DNA of 32,000 nt from Aigarchaeota archaeon. GTDB taxonomy: Archaea > Thermoproteota > Nitrososphaeria_A > Caldarchaeales > Calditenuaceae. Made by a program: the position numbers and the translations under genes. Where the stretch lies: positions 35,343 through 67,342 of the forward strand of contig JANXDH010000006.1 of assembly GCA_025059745.1 (NCBI GenBank). The letters are read 5' to 3'. Under the pieces are notes generated by a model. It worked only from the letters and a program-made list of their open reading frames with translations. It was not told the origin of the DNA and searched no databases. Shown in pieces: positions 6,998 through 31,810 of this stretch (position 1 is the stretch's first letter; the number at the start of each line of letters is the position of its first letter).

Positions 6998-7001
6998 AAA
7001 C

Positions 7002-11329: not shown

Positions 11330-11330
11330 C

Positions 11331-12308
11331 GTGAATAAATTGAAGAGACTTGGTTATTATGAGTTTGCAGTAGTCATGCTCATAATAGTTGCGAGCTTCT
11401 TGCCTCTAATACGCACTGAGGACGTCTGGAGCGGTTTCGGTAGCCACGGATCCCATTTCTATAAGAGTGGTTTCTATGAGTTATATTACTCCGATCATAC
11501 TTCGGGAGTGGGGAAACCTGAGATTTACTTAACAAATGGGCATGATAGAACACCCCTTATTGAGTTCAGTGACCACACCTCTTGGATAGGCTGGCTCAAT
11601 CTTTACTATGACTTTGAGGTAAGAGTAAAAACGCATGATTCAATTCTAGAGGCAGCATATAATGGAGGGGGGGTTGAGTTAATTAAAACCGTAGAGCCTG
11701 GCGAAAAGTACATCAAGGTCAAATACTATTCAAGTAACCCTCAGGCAAATCTTACCGTATCGCTATGGAGATGGTATTTCGAAGATGTTAGTGGAATTAC
11801 CAAGTACAATTGGAGGGTATCAAAAATCCAACCCGTTAACGAATTGAGATTCTCTTTCCGCTCGTCCGAGACTATCTGCGAAGCCAAGCTACTCATCTAC
11901 CCTCTCCCTAAAGAAATATTAGTTAATGGTGACCAGTTAGGAATAGACAAGATAGTTTTGTCTTTTGAGGCTAAAACTGTTGAGTTAGCGCTGGAAGCTG
12001 ACACAGGCTGTCTCAACAACAGCATAACGCTCTCATCAATGTACATCTATCCGATCATAGCAGGTGTTCTCTCAGCAGGGTATCTGGTGCTCAATCGATT
12101 TTGCAATAACGTAAGAACCATAGATCGCTGGAGTAAGGTCTTCGATTCCTCGAGCTCGAGAGTGCTAAGAGAGCCGCTGTTTTTAGCTTTGGCTAGTGGA
12201 ATGATTAGGCTAGCTTTAGCCCCTTTTTCATGCATACATGGGATGTCACGACCGTCCAAGAATCAATGGAGGACTTTCTCTCTGGGAGAAATGTCTATGA
12301 GACTGTGA
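11331..12308 (+). CDS. Membrane protein (TM, about 215-aa ectodomain, two TM helices); probably the N-terminal part of the next gene
   Basis: GTG start 2 nt after the upstream stop. The last predicted TM helix (LFLALASGMIRLALAPF) ends exactly at the heptamer C CCT TTT (12221-12227), where the -1 frame of ORF 12230..13399 is already open. Confidence 0.55.
   Translation: MNKLKRLGYYEFAVVMLIIVASFLPLIRTEDVWSGFGSHGSHFYKSGFYELYYSDHTSGVGKPEIYLTNGHDRTPLIEFSDHTSWIGWLNLYYDFEVRVKTHDSILEAAYNGGGVELIKTVEPGEKYIKVKYYSSNPQANLTVSLWRWYFEDVSGITKYNWRVSKIQPVNELRFSFRSSETICEAKLLIYPLPKEILVNGDQLGIDKIVLSFEAKTVELALEADTGCLNNSITLSSMYIYPIIAGVLSAGYLVLNRFCNNVRTIDRWSKVFDSSSSRVLREPLFLALASGMIRLALAPFSCIHGMSRPSKNQWRTFSLGEMSMRL
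12221..12227 (+). other. Candidate -1 frameshift site (X XXY YYZ heptamer C CCT TTT) joining ORF 11331..12308 to ORF 12230..13399
   Basis: The zero frame reads GCC CCT TTT TCA. A -1 slip gives CCC TTT TTC ATG CAT ACA TGG, that is ...LALAPFFMHTWDV. The -1 frame is open from 12209. A weak stem (12241-12245 pairing with 12253-12257) lies 13 nt downstream. Confidence 0.35.
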
Positions 12309-13399
12309 GCGAGAAGACGGAGATGCTCAGAGAACTCAACGGTGTTGATGCCAGCTACGAGGGATACACCTATCTTCCACATCTTCTATTTATCTACGCC
12401 CCGTTCTACTTCATATACAAGCTTGTAACTGATGGGAGACCTCCGATTTCCGGCGGACACTTTGAAGGACCGTTTATGTTAATCGAACCCAACATTTATG
12501 TCTTCTTAGTTCTGATCAAGGTTCCGATAATCATAGCGGATGCCGCAATAACTTACACGCTAGCTGTGAAATCTCACAGGATAGGGCTGATCTATGCGTT
12601 TCTCCCCTATTCTATAACAATAACTTCGATATGGGGAGCCTTTGATCCATTAGTCGGACTCCTCTTACTTCTGACAGCTATGAATCTAGATAAACGGCCG
12701 TTGGTAGCAGGTCTGCTCTTCGGGATTGCAGTTATGAAACTATATGTGATCGTTACTTTACCAGCTATTCTGCTCTATTTCTCCAAGAATAGGAGGAACC
12801 TCGTCGTATTCCTAATAGGCCTGACGGCCTCTCAGATCCCTACGCTATTGTTCCTCATCCAGAACCCTGAGACCATGTTGAATAGTATATTGTTCCACAC
12901 CTCTAGATCTCCGGGTGGTGTGAATTTTCTTCATTTAGCGCCGAAACTTTATAGTTATGATTTGCAATCGTTTGTCAATAAGCTTGCCCTTTTAACCCTC
13001 GGTATAGCTGTTTCGGTACTCGCCCTCAAGTCCGGTAAGGGGTTCGGTAGGTACCTAGTCCCTTCTCTAGCCGCTTACATGGCTATTGGGCCAGTAACGA
13101 ATGAACAGCACTTATCTAGTATATTGCCTCTCCTCTTTTACAGGGGAAGGTCGTTACTAGCGTTGTGGCTTTCTTATGCTTATCTTTTTTACGCATTACT
13201 ATACTCGGGGCCTGCATACTATACACGCCCAATATCCGCTATTTCAGAAGATTTAAATGACATTCTGTTGATCATAAACCAATCGTGGTACGCTATTTTC
13301 GCCGATATAACTTCACAACTGCTTTATGGTTTAGCCGTAATTTGCTCGTTGACACTCTTCCACGCCATAAAAGGTTTCGTTCAAAAAGTCGCTGCATAG
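12230..13399 (+). CDS. GT-C-fold glycosyltransferase core, PIG-M/DUF2029-like (probably lacks its own first TM helix)
   Basis: It starts directly with an acidic loop (HTWDVTTVQESMEDFLSGRNVYE...YEGYTYLPH) followed by about 10 TM helices. In GT-C enzymes this loop normally follows TM1 and faces outside. Confidence 0.6.
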   Translation: MHTWDVTTVQESMEDFLSGRNVYETVSEKTEMLRELNGVDASYEGYTYLPHLLFIYAPFYFIYKLVTDGRPPISGGHFEGPFMLIEPNIYVFLVLIKVPIIIADAAITYTLAVKSHRIGLIYAFLPYSITITSIWGAFDPLVGLLLLLTAMNLDKRPLVAGLLFGIAVMKLYVIVTLPAILLYFSKNRRNLVVFLIGLTASQIPTLLFLIQNPETMLNSILFHTSRSPGGVNFLHLAPKLYSYDLQSFVNKLALLTLGIAVSVLALKSGKGFGRYLVPSLAAYMAIGPVTNEQHLSSILPLLFYRGRSLLALWLSYAYLFYALLYSGPAYYTRPISAISEDLNDILLIINQSWYAIFADITSQLLYGLAVICSLTLFHAIKGFVQKVAA

Positions 13400-13489: not shown

Positions 13490-14566
13490 ATGAGTCTACA
13501 AGTTATATTCCTGTCTCTAACCTCTAGGGTCAGTGTAATAATAATTGCCCTATTAGCTTCTCATTTTTTAATAATTAGGCAAGTTAGTTCGTGGAGCGTT
13601 GATGTTCCATTAGTTGGTTTGTTTGTTCGCTGGGATTCTGCATATTATCTGACGATATCTCAGCATGGGTTTGTAGAGGAAAACCTGTGGGCGTTTAGAC
13701 CGATTTACCCTCTATTTTTAAGAGCTGTCACTTTGACAAATCAACCCACATGGGAGTTTTTATCCATTGTAGGCTTCGTAGTGAGTAACGCATTTTTCGT
13801 CTTAGCAGTCTACTACCTGTATAAACTAACTAGTCTACTTTTTGACAAAAACACATCATGGAACTCTGTGAAGTTCTTTTGTTTAGCGCCCGGCACCGTT
13901 TATTTTTCAGCCATCTACCCAGACTCGATGTATCTATTTTTCTTGTTTTCTTCTTTCTACTTCTTAGAGAAATCAAAGTATCACATTTCAGCGCTTTTTA
14001 TGACGCTCGCAGTCTTGACTAGGCCTGAGGGCGTTTTGGTAAGCCTCGTGTATCTTTTTGTCAATAAAATTGAAATGAGAAAGAAAAAGATCAGAATATT
14101 GTTAGTCCGCAACGTACATTATGCTATAGGATTAATCCTAATATTTATGAGCTATCCGATTTTCGCTTTGGCTAGCTCAGATCTCTTTCGTCCCATTTAC
14201 TCAGCCCTAAAGTGGGATACATGGACTATCGTTCAATTTTTGCAACCGTGGTGGACTACTGAACCAGATTTCTTTCCAGCTATTGCTGCATGGCTAACCT
14301 TATTATTGTCGGCCATCGCCTTCTCTTTTGGAATTAAATCATTCCTTCGTGATAATTTATCTAAATATTACATCTGGAGTTTATGTACATTTTTTGTTCT
14401 CGTATTTGTCGGTGATTTCCGTTCATTACCGAGGCTCTCTGCCCAGTTAATAGTTGTTTGGTGGTTTTTCTCACAGAATAAACTCCGCAAGGGGTGGTTG
14501 TTCTTGTTTGCTCTTTTATCAACCCTGAGCACTATACTGTTTATAACATGGCATCCGTTACTCTAA
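13490..14566 (+). CDS. GT-C-fold mannosyltransferase-like protein, PIG-V/Gpi18 (GT76)-like
   Basis: RWDSAYYLTISQHGFVEENLWAFRPIYPLFL closely follows the PIG-V signature as I recall it (RWD[AS]..[FY]L.IA.HGY..E...AFFP). The protein has about 8-9 TM helices. Confidence 0.7.
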   Translation: MSLQVIFLSLTSRVSVIIIALLASHFLIIRQVSSWSVDVPLVGLFVRWDSAYYLTISQHGFVEENLWAFRPIYPLFLRAVTLTNQPTWEFLSIVGFVVSNAFFVLAVYYLYKLTSLLFDKNTSWNSVKFFCLAPGTVYFSAIYPDSMYLFFLFSSFYFLEKSKYHISALFMTLAVLTRPEGVLVSLVYLFVNKIEMRKKKIRILLVRNVHYAIGLILIFMSYPIFALASSDLFRPIYSALKWDTWTIVQFLQPWWTTEPDFFPAIAAWLTLLLSAIAFSFGIKSFLRDNLSKYYIWSLCTFFVLVFVGDFRSLPRLSAQLIVVWWFFSQNKLRKGWLFLFALLSTLSTILFITWHPLL

Positions 14567-14582
14567 TCTTGGTCTGGGTGTT

Positions 14583-15131
14583 ATGAACGATACAGAAATA
14601 ACATTAAGAGTGTTTGAACCGAGGGACTCCGAAAAAGTGATAGATTTCTTTACTAGACTGTCAGAGAATACGATTAGGAATTATACAAGATTCGGTTTTC
14701 CCTTAGACATTGATAGTGTTAAGAAACACTTAAGCTGGGTAACTGAAAGCGGATCCGAAATGGAGAAAATATTCATTGCAATAGTGGGCGATAAGGTAGT
14801 CGGTTTGGGTCACTTGACCTTTTTTCAAAAAACTTGGAAAAAACACGTTTGTACCCTAGGAATTGTCATCGAGGACGGTTGGCAGGGAAAGGGGATAGGT
14901 AAAAGTATAATGAATTACATGATATCTTTTGCTAAACAAAAAGGTATTAAAAAAGTGTGGCTTTCGGTATATGCTGATAATCTACGAGCGCGACAACTTT
15001 ATGAGAAAATGGGTTTTGTTGTGGAGGGAATTTTTATCAATGAAGAGATATTTGGTGGGGTTGCGCGGCATGTTATATCGATGGCCCTATTTTTGGACGA
15101 AACATATAAGCCTGATAAGACGACAGGCTGA
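14583..15131 (+). CDS. GNAT-family N-acetyltransferase
   Basis: Acetyl-CoA binding motif A, WQGKGIGKSIM, then ...VWLSVYADNLRARQLYEKMGFVVEG. Confidence 0.85.
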   Translation: MNDTEITLRVFEPRDSEKVIDFFTRLSENTIRNYTRFGFPLDIDSVKKHLSWVTESGSEMEKIFIAIVGDKVVGLGHLTFFQKTWKKHVCTLGIVIEDGWQGKGIGKSIMNYMISFAKQKGIKKVWLSVYADNLRARQLYEKMGFVVEGIFINEEIFGGVARHVISMALFLDETYKPDKTTG

Positions 15132-15171
15132 TTTTATAGGATGGCTTAATGAGTAGTGGCTAAGACGAGAG

Positions 15172-17268
15172 ATGAGAATTAAAATAACGTTTCATTTCAT
15201 AAGAGAGGCGTTGCATAGCAGCGTAGCCGCTTTAATAATCCTTGCCGGTAGCGCTCTGCGCATTTACCTGGCCTTATTTAACCAATATATAGAGTATGAT
15301 GAGGCCGTTTTTCTTGACATGGTCAGATTATTTTTGAATGGTAACATTATATATAGTGATTTTTTGTTATTCAAAACACCTTTACATGTTTTGTTCTCAT
15401 CGATCTTTGTCATAGTTTTTGGTGATGCAATTTTATCCCTCCGGTTTTTCAGCATCTTCATGAGCCTCTTTACCATGTTGCTATTGTATGTGATAGTGAG
15501 ATTATGGTTGAATACTCTGTATGCTCATATGGCATTGGTGTTTTATTCTTTCTCCCCTATCAGTATTGAATTTGATACAATTGGTAAGGCTGAATCGATG
15601 TTTGTTGCCTTCTCTATGCTCTTTTTTTATCTTATTTCAAGATTATTAATTTTCGGAGGTAAAAAAAATCTTGTTCTCTTGAGTTCTATCGCGGGTGCAT
15701 TGTTAGTATTATCTCACGTTCGAGTCTTCATCCCTATGTTTTTAGGTGCCTTAATTTTCTTGATAATTCAAAGAAGATTTAAAACTGCGTTATTAATATT
15801 CAGTTTTACGTTAGCTTTTGCTACGATTTTCGTTTCACCATTTGTCATTCTAGCTCCATATGATTTCCTTCTAAATGTCGTTATTGTGGCATTGCTCCGG
15901 TATCACCCGTCCGTAGTCAGGCCTCTCGATATTTGGAGCCAGGCTTACTCTGTTTATCCACTTGAGTTCATGCTCGGTTTTGGTTATCTTATACCAATGT
16001 CTGTAATGTCTTTTATTTGGCGAAAAGAAAGTAAGAAAGAGAAGAAATTTGTTCAATTTGTGAGCGTTTTAGCAATCGCCCACATACTTTCGTTTACTTT
16101 CCTGTTCCCATTTCATTACGTGTACCTCATGTATGGATTTTTCTCCATCTTCGTATTGGGATTCGTTTCTTTGTTGGTACTGATCAACTCGTTATGGCGA
16201 GCATATTCCCGACGTAAAATTTTAAGTATATTTCTTTTGAGTCTAGGATTAATCTCTTTTGCCTCGGTTAGTATTATCGGACATAAGGAGTACGTTGAGT
16301 TCTTCTCTAGATATGAGTTCGCAACAAGCACCCAGGATATACCTGCGGAGAATATAAGAAATTTAACGAGAAATTTGTTTAGTAATAAAATATCATATGC
16401 TACGTTTGTCCCTAAATTCGCTTATTGGGTTGATGGGAAGCTCGAGTATTTGTCCAATGAATATAAGAGCCTTGATTCTATTGGAACTTTTGAGTTCTTC
16501 ACTATCAAACGAGCCTTAAATGAAACCGGAGGAATATTAAACCAGTTATTCCTTATTCTGTTCAATAGGCAAGAGCTTCATAACAATTGGGCTAGATTAC
16601 GTGGTGAGACTGTTAAATACATCATGGATGATTTAGTAAAAAGGGCCGAGGTCATAATATATAGTGAAGAAGTGAAATCATATATTCCGGAAGTTGATCT
16701 ACTTTATATTCTATCAAATCACTATGCATTCCTTTATCAGGAGGGGCCGTATATAGTTTTTGTTAAATTAACCGAGTCTGGAGTTAACAGCATTAATCTG
16801 CTCTCTTTAGAGTGGATTCCTGAATCGTGGTTTGGGTTGAACAGGCCAGGGACCGATTTCGGCTTGAACCATGAGGGAGAAAATAAAGTGATTTGGATTA
16901 ATTTCAAGAACAATACCGAACAATGGGTTCAATATAAAGTTGCTATAGAGGGGATCGAATTAAGGCCAAACATCTTGATGAGCGTAAAATTGAGTTCAAA
17001 TTGTCCCCAGAATTCTGTCGTGTTCAACTGGGAAATTAAAACGGTTAAGGGAACTATTAGAAAAATATATTCAACTCCTCACATATTCGTAACACAGAAA
17101 GATGAAGAAATCAGATTGACATATGATCTAACATCCCTACTCAGTATAACTGCACGGGAAGAGGTTGATGAAGTTGTTAGGATGTATATTGGCTTTATAA
17201 ATGTGTCCAAAAGAGCGTGTGAGGCGAGCTTCACTTTTAATGACTTGACGTTTCATTTAGAGAACTGA
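15172..17268 (+). CDS. GT-C-fold glycosyltransferase, PMT_2/ArnT-like, with an extracytoplasmic C-terminal domain of about 330 aa
   Basis: 698 aa. The first loop reads YIEYDEAVFLDMVRLFLNGNIIYSDF (a DE-containing loop as in ArnT/PMT-type enzymes), with about 11 TM helices and then a soluble domain. The gene is very AT-rich. Confidence 0.6.
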   Translation: MRIKITFHFIREALHSSVAALIILAGSALRIYLALFNQYIEYDEAVFLDMVRLFLNGNIIYSDFLLFKTPLHVLFSSIFVIVFGDAILSLRFFSIFMSLFTMLLLYVIVRLWLNTLYAHMALVFYSFSPISIEFDTIGKAESMFVAFSMLFFYLISRLLIFGGKKNLVLLSSIAGALLVLSHVRVFIPMFLGALIFLIIQRRFKTALLIFSFTLAFATIFVSPFVILAPYDFLLNVVIVALLRYHPSVVRPLDIWSQAYSVYPLEFMLGFGYLIPMSVMSFIWRKESKKEKKFVQFVSVLAIAHILSFTFLFPFHYVYLMYGFFSIFVLGFVSLLVLINSLWRAYSRRKILSIFLLSLGLISFASVSIIGHKEYVEFFSRYEFATSTQDIPAENIRNLTRNLFSNKISYATFVPKFAYWVDGKLEYLSNEYKSLDSIGTFEFFTIKRALNETGGILNQLFLILFNRQELHNNWARLRGETVKYIMDDLVKRAEVIIYSEEVKSYIPEVDLLYILSNHYAFLYQEGPYIVFVKLTESGVNSINLLSLEWIPESWFGLNRPGTDFGLNHEGENKVIWINFKNNTEQWVQYKVAIEGIELRPNILMSVKLSSNCPQNSVVFNWEIKTVKGTIRKIYSTPHIFVTQKDEEIRLTYDLTSLLSITAREEVDEVVRMYIGFINVSKRACEASFTFNDLTFHLEN

Positions 17269-17280
17269 CTTGGAGATCAG

Positions 17281-17290
17281 CTATAAATTG
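17281..17290 (+). promoter_or_regulatory. TATA-like box upstream of the DPM1-like GT2 gene
   Basis: CTATAAATTG is centred about 31 nt upstream of TTG 17316. An in-frame TAA at 17307-17309 excludes any earlier start. Confidence 0.3.
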
Positions 17291-17315
17291 AATCTTAGAA
17301 ATAAGATAATTTGAG

Positions 17316-17996
17316 TTGTACGTCTCAATTGTAATACCGACGATTAACGAGGCTCAGAACATTCCTGTAATATTTGAAAGGATCAAGAATACGTTGAAAG
17401 GCTACAAATATGAAATCGTAGTGGTCGATGATAACAGTTCTGATGATACAGTCGGTATAGCGACTTCGTTGGGAGCAAAAGTCATAAAGCATGACTTTAG
17501 GAGGGGAGTTGGTTATTCTGTTATGGAGGGGGCCGTGAATTCCCGCGGAGATATAGTCGTCATTATGGATGCTGACGGTAGTCATGATCCAGCTATCCTA
17601 CCCAATTTGGTTAGAATGGTCGAAGACAAATATGATGTCGCGAAAGCATCACGGTTTATTCATGGCGGTCATATGGAAGAAAGAGTCATTTCAACAGTTC
17701 TGTTCAATATCATTGCGAAGATGCTTTTAAACATTAAGGTTAACGATATAACTGGAGGTTACCTTGCAGCTAAAAAAGAATGTTTCAATATACACCCTTT
17801 TTTTAACGATGGTAGGTGGATTCTTTGGTTCATGTTTTCGAACAGAACAAGGAAAATAATCGAGGTACCATATATATACAGAAAGCGAGTTACTGGTTAT
17901 TCAAAGTATGGTGGAATTAAACATTTAAAAAGGGGATTTAATTATTTTTCTTGTCTAATCCACCTCTTAATGTTACGATTAATAGCATCAAGGTAA
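17316..17996 (+). CDS. Polyprenyl/dolichyl-phosphate sugar synthase (DPM1/GtrB-like GT2)
   Basis: VSIVIPTINEAQNI, YEIVVVDDNSSDDT and VVIMDADGSHDP motifs, typical of dolichol-phosphate mannose/glucose synthases. TTG start. Confidence 0.8.
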   Translation: MYVSIVIPTINEAQNIPVIFERIKNTLKGYKYEIVVVDDNSSDDTVGIATSLGAKVIKHDFRRGVGYSVMEGAVNSRGDIVVIMDADGSHDPAILPNLVRMVEDKYDVAKASRFIHGGHMEERVISTVLFNIIAKMLLNIKVNDITGGYLAAKKECFNIHPFFNDGRWILWFMFSNRTRKIIEVPYIYRKRVTGYSKYGGIKHLKRGFNYFSCLIHLLMLRLIASR

Positions 17997-18090
17997 GTAT
18001 GCATCCACAGATTTTTCCCTATGTAGATATTGCGCATCTGAATAAAGAGGCCTGTGAACCCTAAAGAGACTATCGAACTATTGATGCATC

Positions 18091-19362
18091 ATGTTTCCGA
18101 CTAATACGCCACATAAGGGTCGAGATGTAGAACGTCGACTCATAGAATTAGATGCTTTTAGAGGTTTTGCCCTACTTTTAATGATACTTATGCATAACAT
18201 GTGGACGTGGGGGCCACCTAGTATTAGAGGTGGACTTTGGTCCTTAGGTGACCTGTACTTCGGAGCCTCGGCATCTATCTTCTTCGCTGCATCTGGTGCG
18301 GCAGCACATATCCACGTAAAAAAGTCCTTGAGATATGGGACACTCAAGGAGACCGTCCTATTTGCTATATCGCGCGCTGCACTACTTTACTCTATCGGTA
18401 TAGCGTTCGAGCAGATCTGGCGCCCTCCTCCTTATTCATTGACCTTTTTCGCTGAATTAAATACAATTGCGGCGATCTCGGTGATCGTTCTTGTTCTAAA
18501 TCTTTTTACTAAGACAACACAAGTACTCATCCTAATTTTGAGTGTGTTCTCTTATTTTCTACTGAGGTATGTTATCGTGCTTACTTCGTTGGGTGGTGGA
18601 GAATATGCATTTGTTCCATGGCTAACTGACAAACCGATTATCCAATTTAACACAGGTCACTTACTTTTTCAAGTCGCGCTAGAGTTTTGCTATTCAACTT
18701 TAATGTGGGGAAGCTATGGTGTTTTAGGAGCACTCCTTATTGCGTTTCACTTAACTAGTCACCAGATAGCCCGTAGAGTAGGAGCTGGTGGGTTAGCGTT
18801 AATGTTATTAGGTTACATTCTCCACGTACATTTTTTATCTCCATTCCAAAAGTGGCCGATGTCGATCAGCTATTTCTTCTTTGCAACGGGGTTCACCATG
18901 TTCGTTTTCTGGTCTTCAACGCTTATAGCTTCAAGCAGGTTCACCAGGTTCTCAGTTATCCTTTCTGCATTAGGGCGGAACACTCTTAGCTTCTATTTTT
19001 CTCATTATTTTATATTATGGTTCACAGAATTAATAGGATTCGTTAACCTAGTTTGGAGTATCCCAACCTCTATCGTAGGCTACTGGGTTTCTGCAATTTT
19101 AGCTGTGACGGTGTTGACGTTTACTGTGCTTGCGTACGTTTTTCGTAATTTCAATTTAATCAAGTCATCTAGGTTAAAACGATTACCTAATTGGACGTGT
19201 TTTCTTATTGCCATATCGGTTTCTATAATGATCGTATTGTACGTAGATTACGGTCAAACCATTACGAATGCCCTAGGGGTGTCTAACGAGTATCAGTATT
19301 TTCTTATAGATGTGGTGATAACGACTATATGGTACATGATCTTTCGCATTTTAAGAGTTTAA
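18091..19362 (+). CDS. Integral-membrane acyltransferase, DUF1624 / heparan-alpha-glucosaminide N-acetyltransferase-like
   Basis: N-terminal signature LDAFRGFALLLMILMH followed by about 10 TM helices. Confidence 0.7.
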   Translation: MFPTNTPHKGRDVERRLIELDAFRGFALLLMILMHNMWTWGPPSIRGGLWSLGDLYFGASASIFFAASGAAAHIHVKKSLRYGTLKETVLFAISRAALLYSIGIAFEQIWRPPPYSLTFFAELNTIAAISVIVLVLNLFTKTTQVLILILSVFSYFLLRYVIVLTSLGGGEYAFVPWLTDKPIIQFNTGHLLFQVALEFCYSTLMWGSYGVLGALLIAFHLTSHQIARRVGAGGLALMLLGYILHVHFLSPFQKWPMSISYFFFATGFTMFVFWSSTLIASSRFTRFSVILSALGRNTLSFYFSHYFILWFTELIGFVNLVWSIPTSIVGYWVSAILAVTVLTFTVLAYVFRNFNLIKSSRLKRLPNWTCFLIAISVSIMIVLYVDYGQTITNALGVSNEYQYFLIDVVITTIWYMIFRILRV

Positions 19363-19381
19363 CAGTAAAAGTGATTCGTGA

Positions 19382-19387
19382 TTTTTT
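19382..19387 (+). terminator. Oligo-T tract after the acyltransferase gene
   Basis: A T6 run 20 nt after the stop at 19360-19362, within TTTTTTGACAAAAAA (a T6/A6 inverted repeat). Confidence 0.4.
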
Positions 19388-19832
19388 GACAAAAAACTCG
19401 AGATTTATCCTTCTTGAGTGATAGAATAAGCGCGTAACATACTGACACCACACATACCGCCGGTCTCTATTCGGGGTGGTAAAGTATTGAGTTTCGGTAA
19501 CGTTCGTTTATGGAACCATCGTCTATTGTCACCCTGACCTCGAGCCTAAGCGCCTTCTCAGGGCATTGTTTGAAACCGCTTGGTGAATACTATGGTGTAA
19601 TACACTTTCTCCTCTGAAGAGCTATGACGAGGAATCAATTCGGGTCCCTGTCTTTGATACTTAACTTGTTTTGGATACCATACTATTGCGATCGAAGAAA
19701 TACGCTAGGTTTATGTTTCTGATACACATTATAAGTACTTTGAGTGAAGTAAGACATTGTTTTAAAATTCAACCCCCCAATTCTTACAAAAATATACTTA
19801 AATTTCAGTATATTAAAATAAGCACATTAGCT

Positions 19833-20951
19833 ATGATCGCATGGTCTTATCCCGATATTGGTGAAGTGGAGCATCAAAAAATTATGGAAGTCATAAAAAG
19901 CGGTTGGTTGAGTCAAGGATCCATAACCAAACAATTTGAAGATGCTTTACGTGAAACCATAGGGGTTAATCACGCTATTGTAGTAAATAGTGGTACATCC
20001 GCTCTGATTGCTGCGTTATTGGCACACGAAATAGGACAGAGAGACGAGGTCATAGTGCCAACTTACACTTTCGCCGCAACGTGTAATGCCGTGTTGAGTG
20101 TTGGCGCTAAACCAGTTTTTGCTGACTGTGACCCGCATACGTTCAACGTATCACAAGAAACAATAAGAAAAGTCATCACAAGCAAAACTAAAGCGTGTCT
20201 TATAGTTGATGTAGGAGGGATGCCATGTGACTTGGATGGCATTAAAAAATTGTTAGAAAAAAATAACATCATCCTCATCGAAGATGCTGCTCAGGCTTTT
20301 GGCGCGATGTACAAAGACAAAAGGATTGGTTCATTCGATCATACCACCATCTTTAGTTTCCATATGGCCAAAATTATTACTACGGTTGAAGGGGGTTGTG
20401 TTGTTACAAATGACGATGAATTAGCCAATAAATTACGTCTAATTCGAAACCACGGAATGACAAGACCGTATGAACACGTCAATTATGGACTCAATTTTAG
20501 AATAACAGACATTCAATCAGCTATTGGTTTAGCTCAACTAGGCAAACTTTCGTCGTTTCTAAAACGTAGAGCCACCATTTCTGAAATCTACAAGAAAAAT
20601 CTTAAAAGTGTCGTCGACTTTCAGTTTGTACCCGATTATGTCACTCTTCACCCTTATTTCTTGTTTTTCATACTAGCACGAACGGAGGCACAGAGAGAGT
20701 TGATAGAGGCCGAGTTCCTCAGAAGTCGAATAGATTTTCGCAGATGCTGGAAGCCCTTGCATTTACAGCCCTACTATCAAAAAAATGTCAATTCTGTTCA
20801 CTACCCGAGTGCTGAGGATTTGTACAAAAGGTCACTGACCTTGCCGATTGGAAACGCTATGTCACTTGAAAACGCAAATCTTGTTATAGATGCTGTACTT
20901 CGAGCTTGCTTAGAGCGTGATAAGGTATGGGAAACAGCACTGGGGGGATAA
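19833..20951 (+). CDS. DegT/DnrJ/EryC1-family PLP-dependent sugar aminotransferase
   Basis: The family-typical N-terminus begins at ATG 19833 (MIAWSYPDIGEVEHQKIMEVIKSGWLSQG). It has NSGTSAL, EDAAQAFGA, and the PLP lysine in FSFHMAKIITTVEGG. The tracked 54-codon upstream extension is AT-rich promoter-like sequence. Confidence 0.85.
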   Translation: MIAWSYPDIGEVEHQKIMEVIKSGWLSQGSITKQFEDALRETIGVNHAIVVNSGTSALIAALLAHEIGQRDEVIVPTYTFAATCNAVLSVGAKPVFADCDPHTFNVSQETIRKVITSKTKACLIVDVGGMPCDLDGIKKLLEKNNIILIEDAAQAFGAMYKDKRIGSFDHTTIFSFHMAKIITTVEGGCVVTNDDELANKLRLIRNHGMTRPYEHVNYGLNFRITDIQSAIGLAQLGKLSSFLKRRATISEIYKKNLKSVVDFQFVPDYVTLHPYFLFFILARTEAQRELIEAEFLRSRIDFRRCWKPLHLQPYYQKNVNSVHYPSAEDLYKRSLTLPIGNAMSLENANLVIDAVLRACLERDKVWETALGG

Positions 20952-21823
20952 TAGTTACAGGTAGCAGAGGTTTCATAGGTACCAAATTAATTACAGAGTT
21001 AAAGAAAAGGTATGAAGTCTTTGAGTTTGATGTTTCATTAGACCCCTCTATGGATATCCTAAATCGAGAGTTTGTTAAAACATACATCGATGAGGTAAAG
21101 CCTGACACCATTATACATCTCGCTGGTAACCCAAGCGTTAAGTATTCTGACATCAACCCGGTAGATGACCTCGTAGTCAATACTATTGGAACGCTCAATT
21201 TGTTAACAGCCCTGAATAAAAATAATTCTCGATGTCACTTTATATTCGCGTCGACGGCTCAGATATATGGAGAGCCCGTCGATTTACCGGTCAGCGAAGA
21301 GCACGTAACAGAACCGATCACCAATTATGGGGTATCCAAACTTGCGTGTGAAAAATACGTGAAGAATTTTGGGTCGCGCGGAGTAATCAAATACACAATT
21401 TTCAGAATATTCAATGTTTACGGACCTGGACAGAGACCGGGTTTCGTTATACCAGACCTCATACATAAAATCAAGCAGTTGAATTATGAAGAACCACTAC
21501 CGTTATATGCCTCTGAGCAAACATCTAGAGATTTTATTTTCGTGAACGATGTCGTAAAAATTTTTACCAAAGCAGTAGAATTGGGAGGCCAAAATAAAGT
21601 ATTCAATGTATGCTACGGAAAAGAGATCAGAATCATTGATCTTGCCCGACAGATACTTAAGATATTAGGCAAGGAAAGCAACAAGATCGTCCTGAAAGAT
21701 ACATCGAATTCTAAAGGAGTCGAAAGATTGGTCGGCGACCCCACCAAGATGCAAAGATTTTTTGATATAAAATTGACAGATTTTCAACATGGAATAGAGG
21801 AAACTGTAAAAAGTTACGATTAA
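20927..21823 (+). CDS. NAD-dependent sugar epimerase/dehydratase (extended SDR)
   Basis: IIVTGSRGFIGTKL glycine-rich loop, ASTAQIYG, and a YGVSKLACEKY YxxxK motif. It overlaps the aminotransferase gene by 25 nt. Confidence 0.8.
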   Translation: MGNSTGGIIVTGSRGFIGTKLITELKKRYEVFEFDVSLDPSMDILNREFVKTYIDEVKPDTIIHLAGNPSVKYSDINPVDDLVVNTIGTLNLLTALNKNNSRCHFIFASTAQIYGEPVDLPVSEEHVTEPITNYGVSKLACEKYVKNFGSRGVIKYTIFRIFNVYGPGQRPGFVIPDLIHKIKQLNYEEPLPLYASEQTSRDFIFVNDVVKIFTKAVELGGQNKVFNVCYGKEIRIIDLARQILKILGKESNKIVLKDTSNSKGVERLVGDPTKMQRFFDIKLTDFQHGIEETVKSYD

Positions 21824-22014: not shown

Positions 22015-23421
22015 ATGCTCGGTTTTCTATTAATGTCCGAGCAAGCCTCAGGGTCCTCCGACTTGGTTAGGGGAGGTTTCATCTTATTTTTAGATAATAT
22101 CATTTTGACCTTGGGAGGGTGGGTCTTCTGGCTGACCGTCTCTATGTTTACCTCCCCAGATGAGGTCGGTTTTGCTACTACGGCGCTCAGTATTGCGAAT
22201 CTCATAGGGGGCCTCCTTGGATTAGGGCTAGAATACCCCTTGATGAGGGAACTCGCCATAGGACGGCGTTCAGCCTTCGGAACCATACTCGCGTTTGAGA
22301 TGTTAATACTCCTCTCGCTCTCGCCCGTCATGTACTTCATCGGAGTCTACATTTACGGTACCGGCTACTCGCCATACATGACCCTCGGAGTAGGTCTTCT
22401 CTTATTCTCGGGCTTAGCGTTCGTAGGAAAGTTTTCAGCGCTCGCAATCTTAGAGACAAGATATGTGGTTCTCTATGACGTTCTTGCAATCATTATGAGG
22501 TTCGTCGTTGGAGTAGTACTGGTAGTGGCTAGCTATGGAGGGCTTGGCATAGTCGCAGCGAGCCTGGTTCAGGCCTCTATAGTGGGGATGGCGCTCACTC
22601 TTTTATGTATCTCCAGGATAGGGTTCGCAAAAGTTTACCCAAAAGAACTCATTCATTTATTGAAGATAGGAATTGGGAACTTCCCGAGCAGGCTCGTAGG
22701 CATCATGACGAACAACCTAAGCATAGTGTTTCTGGCAGTCTTCACATCGAATCCCGTCGAAGTAGGCCTCTTCTTCATAGCCATTGCCATTAGTTTCGTA
22801 GCAGCGGGGTTTGCAAGTAGCTTAGCGACTATGGCGCTCCCGGTCTCAAGTATGATGAGGACCGATGCCTCCACGGCTAGCTTAAGACTCGGATTAGCCG
22901 TGACGAGCCCACTACTTGCGGCCATATTCGCCTCACCCGGGGTTCCACTGTCGCTCATCAGTCCCTCATATATCGAGGCATCGGAGACTCTCAGAATACT
23001 AGCTTTAGCCATGCTACTCATCGTAGTAGTCACAAACGTTATCACACGTCTCAATCACCTCCAGAAGCTGAAACAACTCACCGCATTAGGCCTCGTCCAC
23101 TTATCAACGTTCCTCGTCCTCTTCCCCATCCTAACCGTATATATGGGGGCGATAGGTGCACCCATAGTGATTCTACTCTCCTCAGCGGCAGCAACCATAT
23201 ATTCACTGAAGTGGCTTGGCAGGAGAGACCTAAGATCTCTAGCGGTCGCACTCCTCATAATAGCGTCAACGTGGATCCTAAGCATCGCTGCCTCGTCACT
23301 TCCACCCTCGATAATCTTCGCCCTGTCCCTGACCGTGGGCGGCCTCATAAACCTCATGAGTGGAGAGCTGACACTCAGCGAGGTGATATACGTCCTCAAA
23401 ACCGTCTCCAATAGAACATAG
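22015..23421 (+). CDS. Polysaccharide/oligosaccharide flippase (Wzx-like, MOP superfamily)
   Basis: 468 aa with about 12-14 TM helices. The N-terminus (GGFILFLDNIILTLGGWVFWLTVSMFTSPDEVG) resembles polysaccharide biosynthesis (Wzx) proteins. ATG 22033 is an alternative start. Its GC content matches the core genome, unlike the genes upstream. Confidence 0.65.
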   Translation: MLGFLLMSEQASGSSDLVRGGFILFLDNIILTLGGWVFWLTVSMFTSPDEVGFATTALSIANLIGGLLGLGLEYPLMRELAIGRRSAFGTILAFEMLILLSLSPVMYFIGVYIYGTGYSPYMTLGVGLLLFSGLAFVGKFSALAILETRYVVLYDVLAIIMRFVVGVVLVVASYGGLGIVAASLVQASIVGMALTLLCISRIGFAKVYPKELIHLLKIGIGNFPSRLVGIMTNNLSIVFLAVFTSNPVEVGLFFIAIAISFVAAGFASSLATMALPVSSMMRTDASTASLRLGLAVTSPLLAAIFASPGVPLSLISPSYIEASETLRILALAMLLIVVVTNVITRLNHLQKLKQLTALGLVHLSTFLVLFPILTVYMGAIGAPIVILLSSAAATIYSLKWLGRRDLRSLAVALLIIASTWILSIAASSLPPSIIFALSLTVGGLINLMSGELTLSEVIYVLKTVSNRT

Positions 23422-23603: not shown

Positions 23604-23696
23604 AGCCCCGGGAGGGGGTCGAACCTTATCGGCCATTCAAATGGCTCTCGACCGTCCGCTTACGAGGCGGACGCTCTACCACTGAGCTACCGGGGC
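23604..23696 (-). tRNA. tRNA-Thr (anticodon CGU) with a 21-nt non-canonical intron in the T-stem (plus-strand 23626-23646)
   Basis: Folded by hand. Acceptor GCCCCGG/CCGGGGC, U8 A9, D-arm GCTC-AGTGGTA-GAGC, anticodon arm TCCGC-CTCGTAA-GCGGA, variable loop CGGTC. The T-stem GAG|GG pairs with CCCTC only after AGCCATTTGAATGGCCGATAA is removed. T-loop TTCGACC, discriminator U, and no encoded CCA. Confidence 0.85.
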
Positions 23697-28167: not shown

Positions 28168-28698
28168 GTGAGAGCGAAGAACTACAGGTCCATAGAGAGA
28201 CCATATACGAAGAAGGACTACATCGCGGGCGCTCCACAGCCGAAACTGATGAAGTTCACCTACGGACAGATGAGTCCCTCCTTCGATCTCATTGTGAGAC
28301 TCGTAGCCGGTTCGGATTTGCAGGTGAGGGACGTGTCCCTTGAGTCCGCTAGGGTGACCGCGGGTAAGTCGTTGTCTAGCAGGATTGGTGAGAAGGAGTT
28401 TTACCTGATAGTGAAGGCTCACCCTCATCACGTCCTGAGAGAGAACAAGATGATCTTCGGTGCGCATGCAGACAGGCTCCAAGAGGGGATGAGTAGGGCT
28501 TTCGGGACTCCGATCGGTAGGGCCGCTCAGATCACCAGAGGCTCGACGGTGATAGAGGTCAGATCTCACTCTAAGAATCTCCAAGTAGTGAAAGAGGCCT
28601 TAGCCACGGCCGCCAAGAAGTTACCAGGTACGTACAGATTAGAGGTCGATTATAACGAGAGGACGGTCACCGAGACTCCAGTCTCAAACGCCGAGTAG
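28168..28698 (+). CDS. rpl10e: Ribosomal protein uL16 (L10e)
   Basis: RAKNYRSIERPYTKKDYIAGAPQPKLMKFTYG is a typical L10e N-terminus. GTG start. Confidence 0.9.
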   Translation: MRAKNYRSIERPYTKKDYIAGAPQPKLMKFTYGQMSPSFDLIVRLVAGSDLQVRDVSLESARVTAGKSLSSRIGEKEFYLIVKAHPHHVLRENKMIFGAHADRLQEGMSRAFGTPIGRAAQITRGSTVIEVRSHSKNLQVVKEALATAAKKLPGTYRLEVDYNERTVTETPVSNAE

Positions 28699-29604
28699 GT
28701 ACCTCAGGAGCGCTCCGAAGGTGTGCATCCTGTTCTCGGCCTGCTCATAGACCAATGAGAGAGGACTGTCCGCTACGTCCGGGGTCACCTCCTCACCCCT
28801 GTACATCGGCATACAGTGCATGAACTTCACGGTCGGCTTAGCGTACGACAACAGTGTTCTGTTGACCTGATATCTCGGTATGAACTCCCTCATCCTCCTC
28901 TCCCTCTCAGCCTCACTCCCCATAGAGACGAATACGTCCGTGTATACGAAGTCCGCTCCCCTGACCGCATCCCCCGGGTCCTCATGGATCTCGATCTTGG
29001 CATTTGAGGTCTTGGCCCATGCCACTACCTCGCTGAGGATATCTTCTCGCACGGAGTAAGCGGGAGGCGAGGCGACGGACATGTGCATACCAAGTTTGCC
29101 TGCGATCTGTAAGAGCGAGTTACAGACATTGTTACCATCGCCTACGTACGCCAACTTCACGGCGTTCAGGTCCCCCGCGTGCTCATGAATCGTCATCACG
29201 TCCGCTAGTGCCTGGGTCGGATGATGAACGTCGGTCAATGCATTGACCACTGGAACCTCGCTGTACTTTGCCAGCTCCTCCATCGTCCTGTGTGAATACA
29301 ATCTGGCGACTATTACGTCAACGTACCTAGAGAGGACCTTCGCGGTATCGAGTATCGGCTCGCCCCTCGATAGCTGCATCTCCGTAGTGCTCAGATTGAT
29401 TGAGGAGCCCCCAAGTTTGGCGATCGCCGAGTTGAACGCGAATCTCGTCCTCGTCGACGGCTTTTCGAAGATCATCGCTATACACCTCCCCCTCAGTAAG
29501 TCACGCGGGTATCCCCGCCTCTTAAACTCCTCTGCCATCTCAATTATCGACAATATCTCCTCTTTCCCGATCGATCTGAAGTCTGTGAAGTGCTTTACCT
29601 GCAT
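28684..29604 (-). CDS. argF: Ornithine carbamoyltransferase
   Basis: STRTR carbamoyl-phosphate motif, HPTQALAD, DVFVSMG and HCMPMYRGEEV (the OTC-type HCLP motif rather than the ATCase HPLPR). The start is placed at ATG 29604 (MQVKHFTDFRSIGKEEIL). The tracked upstream ATG 29643 adds 13 atypical residues. Confidence 0.85.
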   Translation of the reverse strand: MQVKHFTDFRSIGKEEILSIIEMAEEFKRRGYPRDLLRGRCIAMIFEKPSTRTRFAFNSAIAKLGGSSINLSTTEMQLSRGEPILDTAKVLSRYVDVIVARLYSHRTMEELAKYSEVPVVNALTDVHHPTQALADVMTIHEHAGDLNAVKLAYVGDGNNVCNSLLQIAGKLGMHMSVASPPAYSVREDILSEVVAWAKTSNAKIEIHEDPGDAVRGADFVYTDVFVSMGSEAERERRMREFIPRYQVNRTLLSYAKPTVKFMHCMPMYRGEEVTPDVADSPLSLVYEQAENRMHTFGALLRYLLGV

Positions 29605-29679
29605 GACTGATAGGTATATGATGGGTCGGCTCAAATTTAACATTTAATTCAGAGCGGTCTCACTGATCATAACAGTTAA

Positions 29680-31443
29680 ATGAGCGAGGGAGACGTGAAC
29701 GAGGAGTCGTATAGGATATTTGCGGCTTTAGCGTCACCGATTAGACTGAAGTTATTGAGGTCTCTGTCCTCGAGTGACCTCAGTTACACTGAACTCTTCA
29801 AAAACGTTGAACTGAAGAGAGACCGTGAGATGGGGAAGTTCACTTACCACCTGAAGCACCTGTTGAAGACTGGACTGATCGAGGTAGACAGAGACACGAA
29901 ACGATACTCACTAACGGAGAGGGGCCGTCAGGTCCTAGAGTTCGTAACGAGGACGGAGGAAGTAATCTCGGGGAGGCGGCGGCTGACCGTCATCAAGTCT
30001 GATCTAACGTCAGAGCGCTTTGACAAGCTGAGGTTGGTCCGGACGTTGATGGGTGAGGTAGGTCTCCCCCCAAAGACTGCCACAATTATCGCCAACGATG
30101 TCTTGAAGAAGTTGAAGGAATTGAGGTTGATGGAGGTCAGGACCGAGGTTCTCAGGCACCTGATTTGCGAGACCCTGTTAGAGCATGGATTAGAGAGTAA
30201 ATTTCTGAGGATGATGAGGATAGGGGTCGATCCCGGCGAGGTGAACTCGATGATAAAGCAATCGCTCCGATCCCGGGATCCGATACATATGATGAGGGCG
30301 GTCACTGAGGCTGTAACCAAACGTTACCTTCTGACTCACGGCTTCTCGGAGGCTATGCTCAAAAGAATTTACGGTGGGCTGATAGACGTGTACGACGTAG
30401 ACTGCGCGCTCTTCAACGTGCTAGGTATGGGTGTGAAGACCTCCAGTGCTCAGGAGGGTGATGAAGCCCTCATCAGTTACATCTACAGGCGCTTAAGCCT
30501 CGTGAGGGACGTTCTGGTCCTGCGCTCATCCGACATGAGCCGAGGCACACTCAAGCTCCTGAGGAGGTGCGCGCCACTGGACACTAGAACATCCATCTCG
30601 ATAAACGTGGACGGTGTGCCCCACGAGTGGGTGAAAGAGTTCACCGAGCTCAACCTCCCACGGTCACTACTCGAGGAACTCAGTGCCCGTAAGGTTCTCG
30701 TAAACTGCCCTCTGGGAGGAGCTTACCCGATCACCATCAGTAGGGATCTCGATGATGCGGTCTTGTTTGACGGTGGGTGGGTTGCAAAGGTCAACAGCAG
30801 ATCCGGGGTCTCATTAGTTACGTGCATATTCTCGATCAACGTATTCGGATTATTGGCTGTATCTGGGTGGGACTTTGAGGGGGTGAGAGTGACTCTGAGA
30901 GAGATGATCGGTGAGATAGAGAGGATCATCGAGAGGAGAGTTCACGCTATGAGGTTGTTCGACGATGTTGGGTTCCAGCCCACCCAGACCTTTCTCATAG
31001 CGCCAGTGGGTTGCTACGAGAGCGCCCAATATATGGAGGAGAACTTCTCTGAGCGCTCGGAGAACGTGGTGCAGAGGCTTCTGGACTCAATCCTGTGGCT
31101 TAGGTCGAGTCTTACCCCTCGAAGTCGAACCGAGAACCTCGTTATATCCTCATGGACCGAGTCGCTATCTTCCCGACTCTACGATAGGTATTTGGGCTCT
31201 CACCTGAGTGACCGGGGGACGAGGGGGCCGCACATCGATCTCCTAAGGAGAGAGGGGAGATTCTTGAGCTCTATCGTAAAATACAGGAGAGAAATGAATC
31301 TGAGCAGGCTGGAGAGGGTGCTAAAGACGGTCGACGGTGGCGTGACCCTGGAGACGACGCCCGAGAGTCTGGAGAGCGATCTATCGCTCTTAGAGAGGGG
31401 GCATAATGTGGTCCTGCGCGTGAGTCCCACTACTTCTTCTTGA
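29680..31443 (+). CDS. Winged-HTH (ArsR-like) + ATP-cone fusion protein with an unassigned C-terminal region of about 400 aa
   Basis: Residues about 10-90 resemble an ArsR-type wHTH (FAALASPIRLKLLRSL...YTEL...FTYHLKHLLKTGLIE...YSLTERG). Residues about 100-185 resemble an ATP-cone (VIKSDLTSERFDKLRLVRTLM...GLPPKTATIIANDVLKKLKEL...VRTEVLRHLICETLLEHG). The remainder has no motif I can assign. Confidence 0.6.
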   Translation: MSEGDVNEESYRIFAALASPIRLKLLRSLSSSDLSYTELFKNVELKRDREMGKFTYHLKHLLKTGLIEVDRDTKRYSLTERGRQVLEFVTRTEEVISGRRRLTVIKSDLTSERFDKLRLVRTLMGEVGLPPKTATIIANDVLKKLKELRLMEVRTEVLRHLICETLLEHGLESKFLRMMRIGVDPGEVNSMIKQSLRSRDPIHMMRAVTEAVTKRYLLTHGFSEAMLKRIYGGLIDVYDVDCALFNVLGMGVKTSSAQEGDEALISYIYRRLSLVRDVLVLRSSDMSRGTLKLLRRCAPLDTRTSISINVDGVPHEWVKEFTELNLPRSLLEELSARKVLVNCPLGGAYPITISRDLDDAVLFDGGWVAKVNSRSGVSLVTCIFSINVFGLLAVSGWDFEGVRVTLREMIGEIERIIERRVHAMRLFDDVGFQPTQTFLIAPVGCYESAQYMEENFSERSENVVQRLLDSILWLRSSLTPRSRTENLVISSWTESLSSRLYDRYLGSHLSDRGTRGPHIDLLRREGRFLSSIVKYRREMNLSRLERVLKTVDGGVTLETTPESLESDLSLLERGHNVVLRVSPTTSS

Positions 31444-31810
31444 GGGAGAGGATTGCCCTCGCCAGATCTCCGTTAGACTCCGTCAACGCCCTCCTAGCCT
31501 CGTCCTCGGTCACTCCCGCCTGCATGGCAACTATTGCCACGTCCTCATCGCTGGGCGTGTAGGATTGATGTTCCATTTCTTCAACGTGCGTCTCAGCCAC
31601 CTGTTCGCCGCCGGCTATCTGGTACATCTTACCTTGGGGAGTATCCAATTCGACCACGTTCGGGTTCAATATCTTTATGCTCCTGTCCTTGAGACTGATA
31701 ATAACGTAGTGAGCTTGACCGAGCTCGTTCACCGACATCCCCAGCTCGTTCAACATACGTGATTGCAACCTGCGCAGTTCACGAGGTGAGAGCCGCTTCA
31801 CGTCAACCAT
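31430..31810 (-). CDS. nac: Nascent polypeptide-associated complex protein (archaeal NAC alpha)
   Basis: NAC domain (VIISLKDRSIKILNPNVVELDTPQGKMYQIAGG) plus a C-terminal UBA-like tail (EDVAIVAMQAGVTEDEARRALTESNGDLARAILSL). Confidence 0.85.
   Translation of the reverse strand: MVDVKRLSPRELRRLQSRMLNELGMSVNELGQAHYVIISLKDRSIKILNPNVVELDTPQGKMYQIAGGEQVAETHVEEMEHQSYTPSDEDVAIVAMQAGVTEDEARRALTESNGDLARAILSLKKK

Follow-up and report, generated by a model that had tools for sequence, protein, structure and literature searches.

A gene in the 32,000-nucleotide (nt) stretch of Aigarchaeota DNA analyzed here (the window) encodes what is, in our view, probably a transcription regulator derived from a catalytically dead tandem duplicate of nrdD, the gene for class III ribonucleotide reductase (RNR). 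This gene, which we call REG, lies at 29680..31443 on the + strand and specifies, from an ATG start, a protein of 587 amino acids (aa) composed of a winged helix-turn-helix (wHTH), an ATP-cone and a truncated pseudo-NrdD. An exhaustive HMMER search of representatives clustered at 50% identity returned 344 relatives at E<=1e-3, 152 of them at E<=1e-10, which fall into two length classes, one of ~570-600 aa that is REG-like (the short class) and one of ~630-780 aa (the long forms). A literature search (full text, together with the NrdR and NrdD papers) found no description of a wHTH, ATP-cone and dead-NrdD architecture, in line with the initial annotation of this DNA, according to which no functional characterization of such a protein is known.

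Predicted domain architecture of REG

The initial annotation could not assign the C-terminal ~400 aa of REG, and Pfam likewise gave no match for residues 190-587, with NRDD (PF13597) absent even at E<=10. A direct search of the REG sequence against the Protein Data Bank (PDB) yielded nothing significant, and a family profile was needed to obtain matches. P0002, a relative of 729 aa found by a word-indexed search, carries DUF7347, an ATP-cone and NRDD (PF13597, E=2.6e-73) and aligns by BLASTP with REG residues 13-240 (28% identity, E=1e-25), so that the resemblance to NrdD suspected earlier just behind the cone holds. Among 23 short-class relatives (alignment A1), 13 have an NRDD match (best 2.8e-15), and the A1 profile matches the NrdD structures of S. 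thermophilus (9d3x, E=9.3e-17) and T. maritima (4coi, 8.8e-9). A profile made from the C-terminal domain only, using 33 sequences taken from loci (A3), matched solved NrdD at 5.4e-13.

Structure prediction gave the same assignment. Foldseek matches to an AlphaFold model of whole REG (mean predicted local distance difference test score, pLDDT, 79.8; predicted template modeling score, pTM, 0.76) were all class III RNRs through rank 27 (best E=3.8e-10, probability 1.0), followed by class I/II RNRs, the cones of NrdR and NrdB, and ArsR/SmtB repressors. A model of the C-terminal region only (pLDDT 78.0, pTM 0.81) ranked 29 class III RNR chains ahead of class I RNR and pyruvate formate-lyase. The template modeling scores normalized to the query (TMq) were 0.44-0.56 for this second model and 0.39-0.56 against NrdD across both, and because of the 0.44-0.56 range we describe the predicted C-terminal domain as a clearly related but heavily altered version of the ten-stranded alpha/beta barrel of NrdD. 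It can be divided into the N-terminal helices of the NrdD core with the first barrel strand (30235..30414, + strand) and the diverged, truncated barrel proper (30415..31440, + strand).

At the other end of the protein, residues ~13-95 (29716..29964, + strand) form an ArsR-type wHTH with the recognition helix FTYHLKHLLKTGLIEV, as the initial annotation had proposed. Its best Pfam match is the archaeal family DUF7347 (PF24038; residues 13-89, E=6.6e-10, 39.5 bits against a cut-off of 27.6), which is present in all 23 A1 relatives; HTH_45 scores 25.6 bits, barely above its cut-off of 25.5, and NCBIfam gave weak ArsR-type matches only. The A1 profile matches the ArsR/SmtB structures NmtR, NolR, ArsR and SmtB in the PDB (E=5e-6 to 2e-4), and Foldseek of the REG model returned SmtB, BigR, HlyU, NolR and SqrR with template modeling scores normalized to the target (TMt) of 0.66-0.77. 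Within this region G52, F54, Y56, H57 and L58 are invariant in an alignment of six sequences (A2). REG has in common with the ArsR/SmtB repressors (PF01022, PF12840; NmtR 2lkp, SmtB 1r22, NolR 4omy) both the wHTH fold and the recognition-helix signature (S/T)xHLxxLxxxGL(I/V), but in REG the wHTH makes up only the first 95 of 587 residues and is closest to DUF7347.

Between these two parts lies a partly degenerate, ATP-cone-like domain (29977..30234, + strand; residues ~100-185). In the predicted model, strands at 103-105 and 111-113 and helices at 116-127, 131-148, 155-168 and 172-178 (pLDDT 78-93) build a hairpin-plus-helices fold that matches the fold of PF03477, a beta-hairpin lid with a four-helix bundle. 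Foldseek finds the NrdR cone 9a6n_B (E=1e-3) and the NrdB cone 5olk_C, and the NrdD matches span their cones. An ATP-cone was found in 19 of the 23 A1 relatives at E<=0.01 (best 2.4e-9). The ATP-cone of the initial annotation is thus supported by the relatives and by the predicted fold, while REG itself scores just below the Pfam cut-off. The cone motif of the family runs V104-R105-T/R106-S107 ... E112-x-F114-D115-x-x-K118-I119 ... Y174-R175-H176-K177-L-T-R180-L-G182, from which REG retains K106, E112, F114, D115, R118, R177, R180 and G182. In the P. copri NrdD cone, the nucleotide is contacted by K7 and R8 of the hairpin and by Y83, R87 and R91 of the last helix (PMC11226230). Genuine NrdDs encoded next to long-form relatives begin with the same VRTS..F.FD..KI cone variant as the family, and by its sequence we assign the REG cone to this 'VRTS' type of the archaeal NrdD enzymes.

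Loss of the catalytic signatures

In a HMMER alignment of P0002 to phage T4 NrdD, T4 C290 (SPMGCRSFL; 'GCR') aligns to an aspartate (S..GDRLAADF; 'GDR') and the region of T4 C79 faces SEVAHDV. Motifs were counted across 122 aligned family representatives, each >=520 aa long. Only 2 of the 122 have Cys in the C290 column, which is gapped or diverged in REG, and the finger loop that reads CCRL in neighboring real NrdDs is SGLRL or SGTRL in the fused copies. The glycyl-radical motif RxxG[YFW] occurs in 2-5 of the 122 and is absent from REG, which ends directly past the last barrel strand (...NVVLRVSPTTSS). The Zn ribbon, a C-terminal Cys4, is kept in 77 of the 122, with no CxxC...CxxC in REG or in 44 other short or atypical members, and neither A1 nor A2 contains a conserved Cys. 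Of the NLPR strand motif, REG retains N387 (30838-30840) alone. Finally, the HxHD motif, which binds the substrate triphosphate in NrdD (PMC11226230), is degraded in REG to D236-V-Y-D239 (30385-30396), the family consensus at this position being IDxY/H ('sGeIDlyp' aligned to 'GDIHFHDL' of 9d3x).

The genome from which the window comes (1.17 Mb, 6 contigs, 88.8% complete) has no NRDD match at this level of completeness, and the activase NrdG (TIGR02495) is probably absent as well, with a best score of 40.8 bits against a cut-off of 131. It encodes one class II NrdJ with a canonical ATP-cone (VKRDG, TNPCGE) on another contig, and this protein and REG are its only ATP-cone matches. A fragment elsewhere in the genome (G000:C6:43572-43880, - strand) matches the N-terminal part of the RNR large-subunit domain PF02867 with 26.7 bits and contains 4 stop codons; it is probably the remnant of a decayed RNR gene.

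Compared with class III RNR (PF13597; T4 1h78, T. maritima 4coi/4u3e, P. copri 8p23, S. thermophilus 9d3x), REG is homologous over the cone, the following helices and the barrel, but it has an additional N-terminal wHTH and lacks the thiyl Cys, HxHD, Zn ribbon and glycyl-radical domain; moreover, Pfam NRDD does not recognize it, and the barrel similarity is low by the scores given above. As far as the sequence allows, REG is therefore catalytically dead by loss of all radical-chemistry and substrate-binding signatures. The initial annotation had seen neither a glycyl-radical motif nor a C-terminal Cys cluster and had suggested a dead RNR-derived domain; the motif alignments and a genome in which neither NrdD nor NrdG was found agree with it on each count, and the enzyme family that the C-terminal region turns out to match, NrdD, is represented here with its catalytic residues lost.

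Distribution, selection and naming of the family

REG was found as a single copy in 68 of 76 sampled Caldarchaeales genomes, including 41 of the 43 of high quality; the loci compared include those of Ca. Wolframiiraptor, Terraquivivens, Geocrenenecus, Pelearchaeum and Caldarchaeum. The closest relative of the window's REG, P0003, shares 34% protein identity with it. We calculated ratios of nonsynonymous to synonymous substitution rates (dN/dS, omega) pairwise with a script for the Nei-Gojobori method (NG86), two of the listed pairs being seemingly the same genome pair. In most Caldarchaeales pairs the ATP-cone had the lowest values (0.00-0.07), followed by the wHTH (0.04-0.15) and the barrel (0.08-0.25), and in pairs from the window's own family omega was <1 in all domains with the exception of one pair's linker. 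REG is vertically inherited and under purifying selection.

The long forms, found in Bathyarchaeia and Nitrosopumilaceae (e.g., WP_211687395.1 of Nitrosopumilus sp. K4 and TET57147.1), have the same three-part architecture, lack the catalytic Cys and Gly as REG does, and align with it from residue 13 to ~250 at 28-37% identity. Unlike REG, they keep the NLPR strand and the Zn ribbon (77/122), match Pfam NRDD and reach 630-780 aa; REG is truncated after the barrel and more diverged. The family they represent is large, with >1,800 proteins matching one long-form query at E<=1e-10 and matches to that query at E<=1e-12 in 307 of 401 sampled Thermoproteota genomes, a count that includes genuine NrdDs.

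In public databases the long forms carry names as different as 'anaerobic ribonucleoside-triphosphate reductase', 'ArsR family transcriptional regulator' and 'ATP-cone domain-containing protein'. In RefSeq and at the Joint Genome Institute (JGI), the dead fusion (WP_211687395.1, WP_109877644.1, WP_101476989.1) is named 'anaerobic ribonucleoside-triphosphate reductase', once with '(formate)', in the aerobic ammonia oxidizers Nitrosopumilus and Nitrosotalea. Because the Cys and Gly are missing, the reductase naming of the dead fusions is a systematic misannotation, and in obligate aerobes it can falsely suggest anaerobic DNA synthesis in metabolic reconstructions.

Genomic context of REG and its relatives

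Seven Bathyarchaeia genomes have tandems in which the fused gene immediately precedes, on the same strand, another NrdD-like gene that has no wHTH. This downstream gene carries GAIHIHD, WSRITGYY, a Zn ribbon and a CCRL finger loop in most cases (Pfam confirmed one, with NRDD at 518 bits), whereas in the fused copy ahead of it the finger loop is altered and RITGY is missing. We also examined 60 further loci from diverse families that were picked blind, solely by the match list. Of the 60, 13 have a co-directional RNR gene immediately downstream, namely 3 with a second NrdD-like gene and 2 with nrdJ, plus 8 of 9 Nitrosopumilaceae loci with nrdJ; pyrB and/or pyrI is adjacent in ~25 of the 60. The long form is co-directional with a downstream nrdJ in both Nitrosopumilus and Nitrosotalea. 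In Nitrosopumilus sp. K4, for instance, QUC64735.1 (REG, named 'helix-turn-helix domain-containing protein' or 'anaerobic ribonucleoside-triphosphate reductase') precedes QUC64736.1, an adenosylcobalamin-dependent RNR. Overall, at least 7 families show adjacency to RNR genes, and the RNR genes concerned are of two classes. The link to nrd genes that one would look for in a nucleotide-sensing regulator therefore exists for long-form relatives, which lie directly upstream of nrdD or nrdJ in these families, but not for the Caldarchaeales REG, which is not adjacent to nrd genes.

The long forms usually adjoin nrdD, nrdJ or pyrBI, while REG sits between two other genes. The divergent neighbor (28684..29604, - strand) encodes ornithine carbamoyltransferase, argF; pyrB as its identity was rejected in favor of argF on the TIGR00658 score (383 bits, cut-off 280.85). 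The convergent neighbor (31430..31810, - strand) is a gene for the nascent polypeptide-associated complex (NAC) with a UBA_HYPK Pfam match, and it overlaps the 3' end of REG by 14 nt. The P0003 locus has identical synteny (Pus10-L21e-Rpo4-DUF655-L10e-<argF REG> <NAC) and a spacer that is also 75 nt long. NAC is convergent with REG in 51 of 57 Caldarchaeales loci and in 12 of 60 loci phylum-wide. The pyrB found next to the gene in Bathyarchaeia is on the opposite side from argF, which is explained by an ancestral REG-nrdD-pyrBI cluster. Because one Bathyarchaeia locus (L113) has the full cluster REG> nrdD> <pyrB pyrI> <NAC and other lineages have REG> <pyrB pyrI> or REG> <NAC, the window's REG> <NAC arrangement looks, from gene order, like what a REG-nrdD-pyrBI-NAC cluster would leave behind on losing nrdD and pyrBI.

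A putative regulator of deoxynucleotide synthesis

Under the regulator reading, the family would have originated by tandem duplication of nrdD together with the gain of a wHTH. The wHTH would bind DNA and the dead barrel would serve as a dimer scaffold, so that the cone, perhaps with a vestigial effector site, could read ATP/dATP, reposition the two wHTH heads and switch transcription of RNR and nucleotide-synthesis genes, a job parallel to that of NrdR in bacteria. In the window's genome, where the neighboring nrdD and pyrBI appear to be lost, the likely targets would be the unlinked nrdJ, the gene's own promoter and/or the divergent argF, and nucleotide sensing may be weakened in this copy.

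NrdR is reported to be rare in archaea (PMC9110341, PMC12176259). It is a repressor made of a Zn ribbon and an ATP-cone, and REG differs from it in having a wHTH at the N-terminus with no CxxC pairs and a pseudoenzyme body of 400 aa, with homology limited to the cone and no NrdR-box-like operator found; relatives of REG resemble NrdR in being encoded beside RNR genes of different classes. More tentatively, and we would not put it above a serious possibility, the wHTH, ATP-cone and dead-NrdD family as a whole could be the missing archaeal counterpart of NrdR, reading deoxynucleoside triphosphate (dNTP) and ATP pools through the ATP-cone and possibly through vestigial effector or substrate sites, and controlling RNR genes of any class plus pyrimidine and carbamoyl-phosphate genes such as pyrBI and argF, with the short form of Caldarchaeales as a pared-down version that retained this role once the adjacent nrdD had gone and that acts at a distance on nrdJ. 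Specific to the window are the truncated Caldarchaeales form, a genome without NrdD, a partly degenerate cone and the remnant-cluster context.

Several results weigh against a nucleotide-sensing regulator of RNR genes. The PF03477 match of REG itself (residues 103-172, E=3.1e-4) scores 21.6 bits, rising to 25.0 in the genome scan, and stays below the cut-off of 25.8, and at cone positions 105, 174, 175 and 176, where R, Y, R and H occur in 83-112 of the 122 family members, REG has I, K, F and L. Pairs from the window's own family give a higher dN/dS than most pairs (cone 0.16-0.24, barrel 0.33-0.51, linker 0.6-1.0), and REG was found in 0 of 7 genomes of the sister genus g2. Within 6 kb of REG in Caldarchaeales there is neither an nrd nor a pyr gene, and argF, which is divergent from it in only 20 of 57 related Caldarchaeales loci, was rejected as a conserved partner. 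The upstream regions of REG and nrdJ in 9 genomes share no longest common words beyond those of shuffled sequences (P=0.34-1.0), and searches of upstream regions found no operator or NrdR-box-like site for REG. Further, the genomes behind the context counts are related, so that the counts do not represent independent events, and adjacency in other classes is no proof of the same role in Caldarchaeales.

Much of this evidence would also fit a DNA-binding protein that no longer senses nucleotides, in which cone and barrel form a dimerization or spacer body of a transcription factor that is constitutive or otherwise controlled, or of a chromatin-type protein. The sub-threshold cone with R105, Y174, R175 and H176 replaced, the lost HxHD, the relaxed constraint in the window's family and the absence of an nrd link in Caldarchaeales all favor such a protein, as does an NCBIfam likeness to Sso10a-type chromatin proteins that is weak (E=7e-4) and falls far short of the cut-off. 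We nonetheless regard it as unlikely, since the cone is the most constrained domain in most Caldarchaeales pairs, which is hard to reconcile with a mere spacer, and REG still has the eight cone residues listed above, among them K106, R177 and R180.

Pseudoenzyme paralogues encoded beside their active parent often regulate that parent directly. The pseudo-NrdD body might accordingly act at the protein level, binding NrdJ, or elsewhere NrdD as a pseudoenzyme-enzyme heterodimer, with the wHTH used for protein contacts. Tandem REG-nrdD pairs do exist, yet the wHTH keeps a strongly conserved ArsR-type recognition-helix signature, the window's genome has no NrdD to pair with, and the family is also kept where the neighboring RNR is of class II, whose dimer interface is different. 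This makes a protein-level partner improbable.

Slightly less probable still is that REG is a relic on its way out of its own genome, which once worked as a regulator or enzyme and is now functionless there. It is the shortest and most diverged form, with only 34% identity to its nearest relative, omega is raised in the window's family, and the gene has been lost from the sister genus g2. A relic would not be expected, however, to have an intact frame of 587 codons, identical synteny and a promoter block conserved at 17 of 17 positions in a relative of 34% identity, or omega <1 in the domains of family pairs as reported above. An active RNR or other radical enzyme with regulatory add-ons, as the reductase names of long-form relatives would have it, is effectively excluded, given that REG has no finger-loop Cys, HxHD, Zn ribbon, glycyl-radical domain or conserved Cys, that no NrdG was found in its genome, and that copies in obligately aerobic Nitrosopumilus bear the same name beside a real class II enzyme.

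The regulator reading matters in the first place because transcriptional control of dNTP synthesis in archaea is largely unknown, and the family is a widespread candidate for it. The idea is testable because the family includes the cultured ammonia oxidizers Nitrosopumilus and Nitrosotalea, which carry the gene directly upstream of nrdJ. The series from active NrdD through the full-length dead fusion to the truncated form of the window would also be a clean example of an enzyme turning into a regulator.

Promoter elements and candidate operators

The 75-nt spacer between argF and REG contains AATTTAACATTTAATTC (29634..29650, no strand assigned), which is identical at 17 of 17 positions in the P0003 locus while the rest of the spacer has diverged, and which is unique in its own genome at <=2 mismatches. 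A similar AT-rich dyad occupies about -47..-32 relative to a gene that, judged by eye, is L7Ae-like. Because this dyad lies at promoter distance from another gene, AATTTAACATTTAATTC was rejected as an operator and is, on sequence grounds, probably the shared B recognition element (BRE)/TATA core promoter of the argF/REG pair.

Other candidates were also set aside. The TGATC-like half-sites ACTGATCA (29662-29669) and ACTGATAG (29606-29613) are not conserved in the P0003 locus or the sister genus. Upstream of REG in Wolframiiraptor, CCACCATATATGTTTAGC is probably at TATA distance from an apparent divergent start ~85 nt upstream, which likely belongs to a small secE-like gene of the spt5-L11 operon.

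In Nitrosopumilaceae (L160 at ~6990-7200, and L163-L166), the 180 nt preceding the long-form REG contain up to 7-8 repeats with a TGATC core (about AAACTGATC[CT]A). Further copies occur between REG and nrdJ, and one copy overlaps the stop codon of the upstream gene. The pooled density of the repeats is 5.3x that of the rest of the loci, and in 5 of 8 genomes no other window of the 16.5-kb locus is as dense as this array. From its position and density we consider it a candidate operator array. In Bathyarchaeia (L110-L113), the REG-nrdD spacers contain conserved direct repeats, TGTCAAACA-N7-TGTCAATTT and then ACTACAGNNTTTTATACAG, upstream of the genuine nrdD, and the reverse complement TTGACA is found upstream of REG in two of these genomes, which are closely related.

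Conserved leaders were also seen at the nrdJ genes of two genera. In genus g3 (L080-L082, L085), a perfect hairpin GGCCCACGTAGTGGGCC inside ...CGAGTTATATGAGGCCCACGTAGTGGGCCTTGCTCGGTGGCTTGGGA occupies the last ~50 nt before the nrdJ start, and in genus g6 nrdJ has a different conserved leader, AAGGTCTAACAAAGTGTAGTTGGAGGTCAA. Neither matches Rfam, and each may have a regulatory role for the class II RNR gene.

Neighboring genes and other features of the window

Beyond the divergent carbamoyltransferase gene and the convergent NAC gene, the neighbors of REG in the window are archaeal housekeeping genes by Pfam (NifU, SRP54, Pus10, L21e, Rpo4, DUF655 and L10e). In a locus of a sister genus without REG (L104, G001:C3, 5148-6273), the slot on the NAC side holds, as read by eye from the translations, an apparent nicotinamide mononucleotide (NMN) adenylyltransferase gene and an open reading frame (ORF) of 143 aa with an apparent C-terminal zinc-finger motif (CPHCG...HLKIH).

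Four ORFs of 876, 325, 389 and 468 aa at 8699-13399 (+ strand) and 22015-23421 (+ strand) have no Pfam match at E<=1e-5. An Rfam scan of the window and of two nrdJ loci returned a transfer RNA (tRNA) as its sole match, at 23604-23696 (- strand), whose 93 nt are of a length that would accommodate an intron.

Finally, a stretch at 13490-21823 has a GC content of 0.37-0.40, compared with 0.53-0.55 from 24 kb onward. Its genes belong to glycosylation and the cell surface, with PIG-V-type and PMT_2 mannosyltransferases, a GT2, a GNAT, an HGSNAT-like acyltransferase and a DegT aminotransferase. This stretch may be a horizontally acquired surface-glycan island, and the tRNA lies ~1.8 kb past its end.

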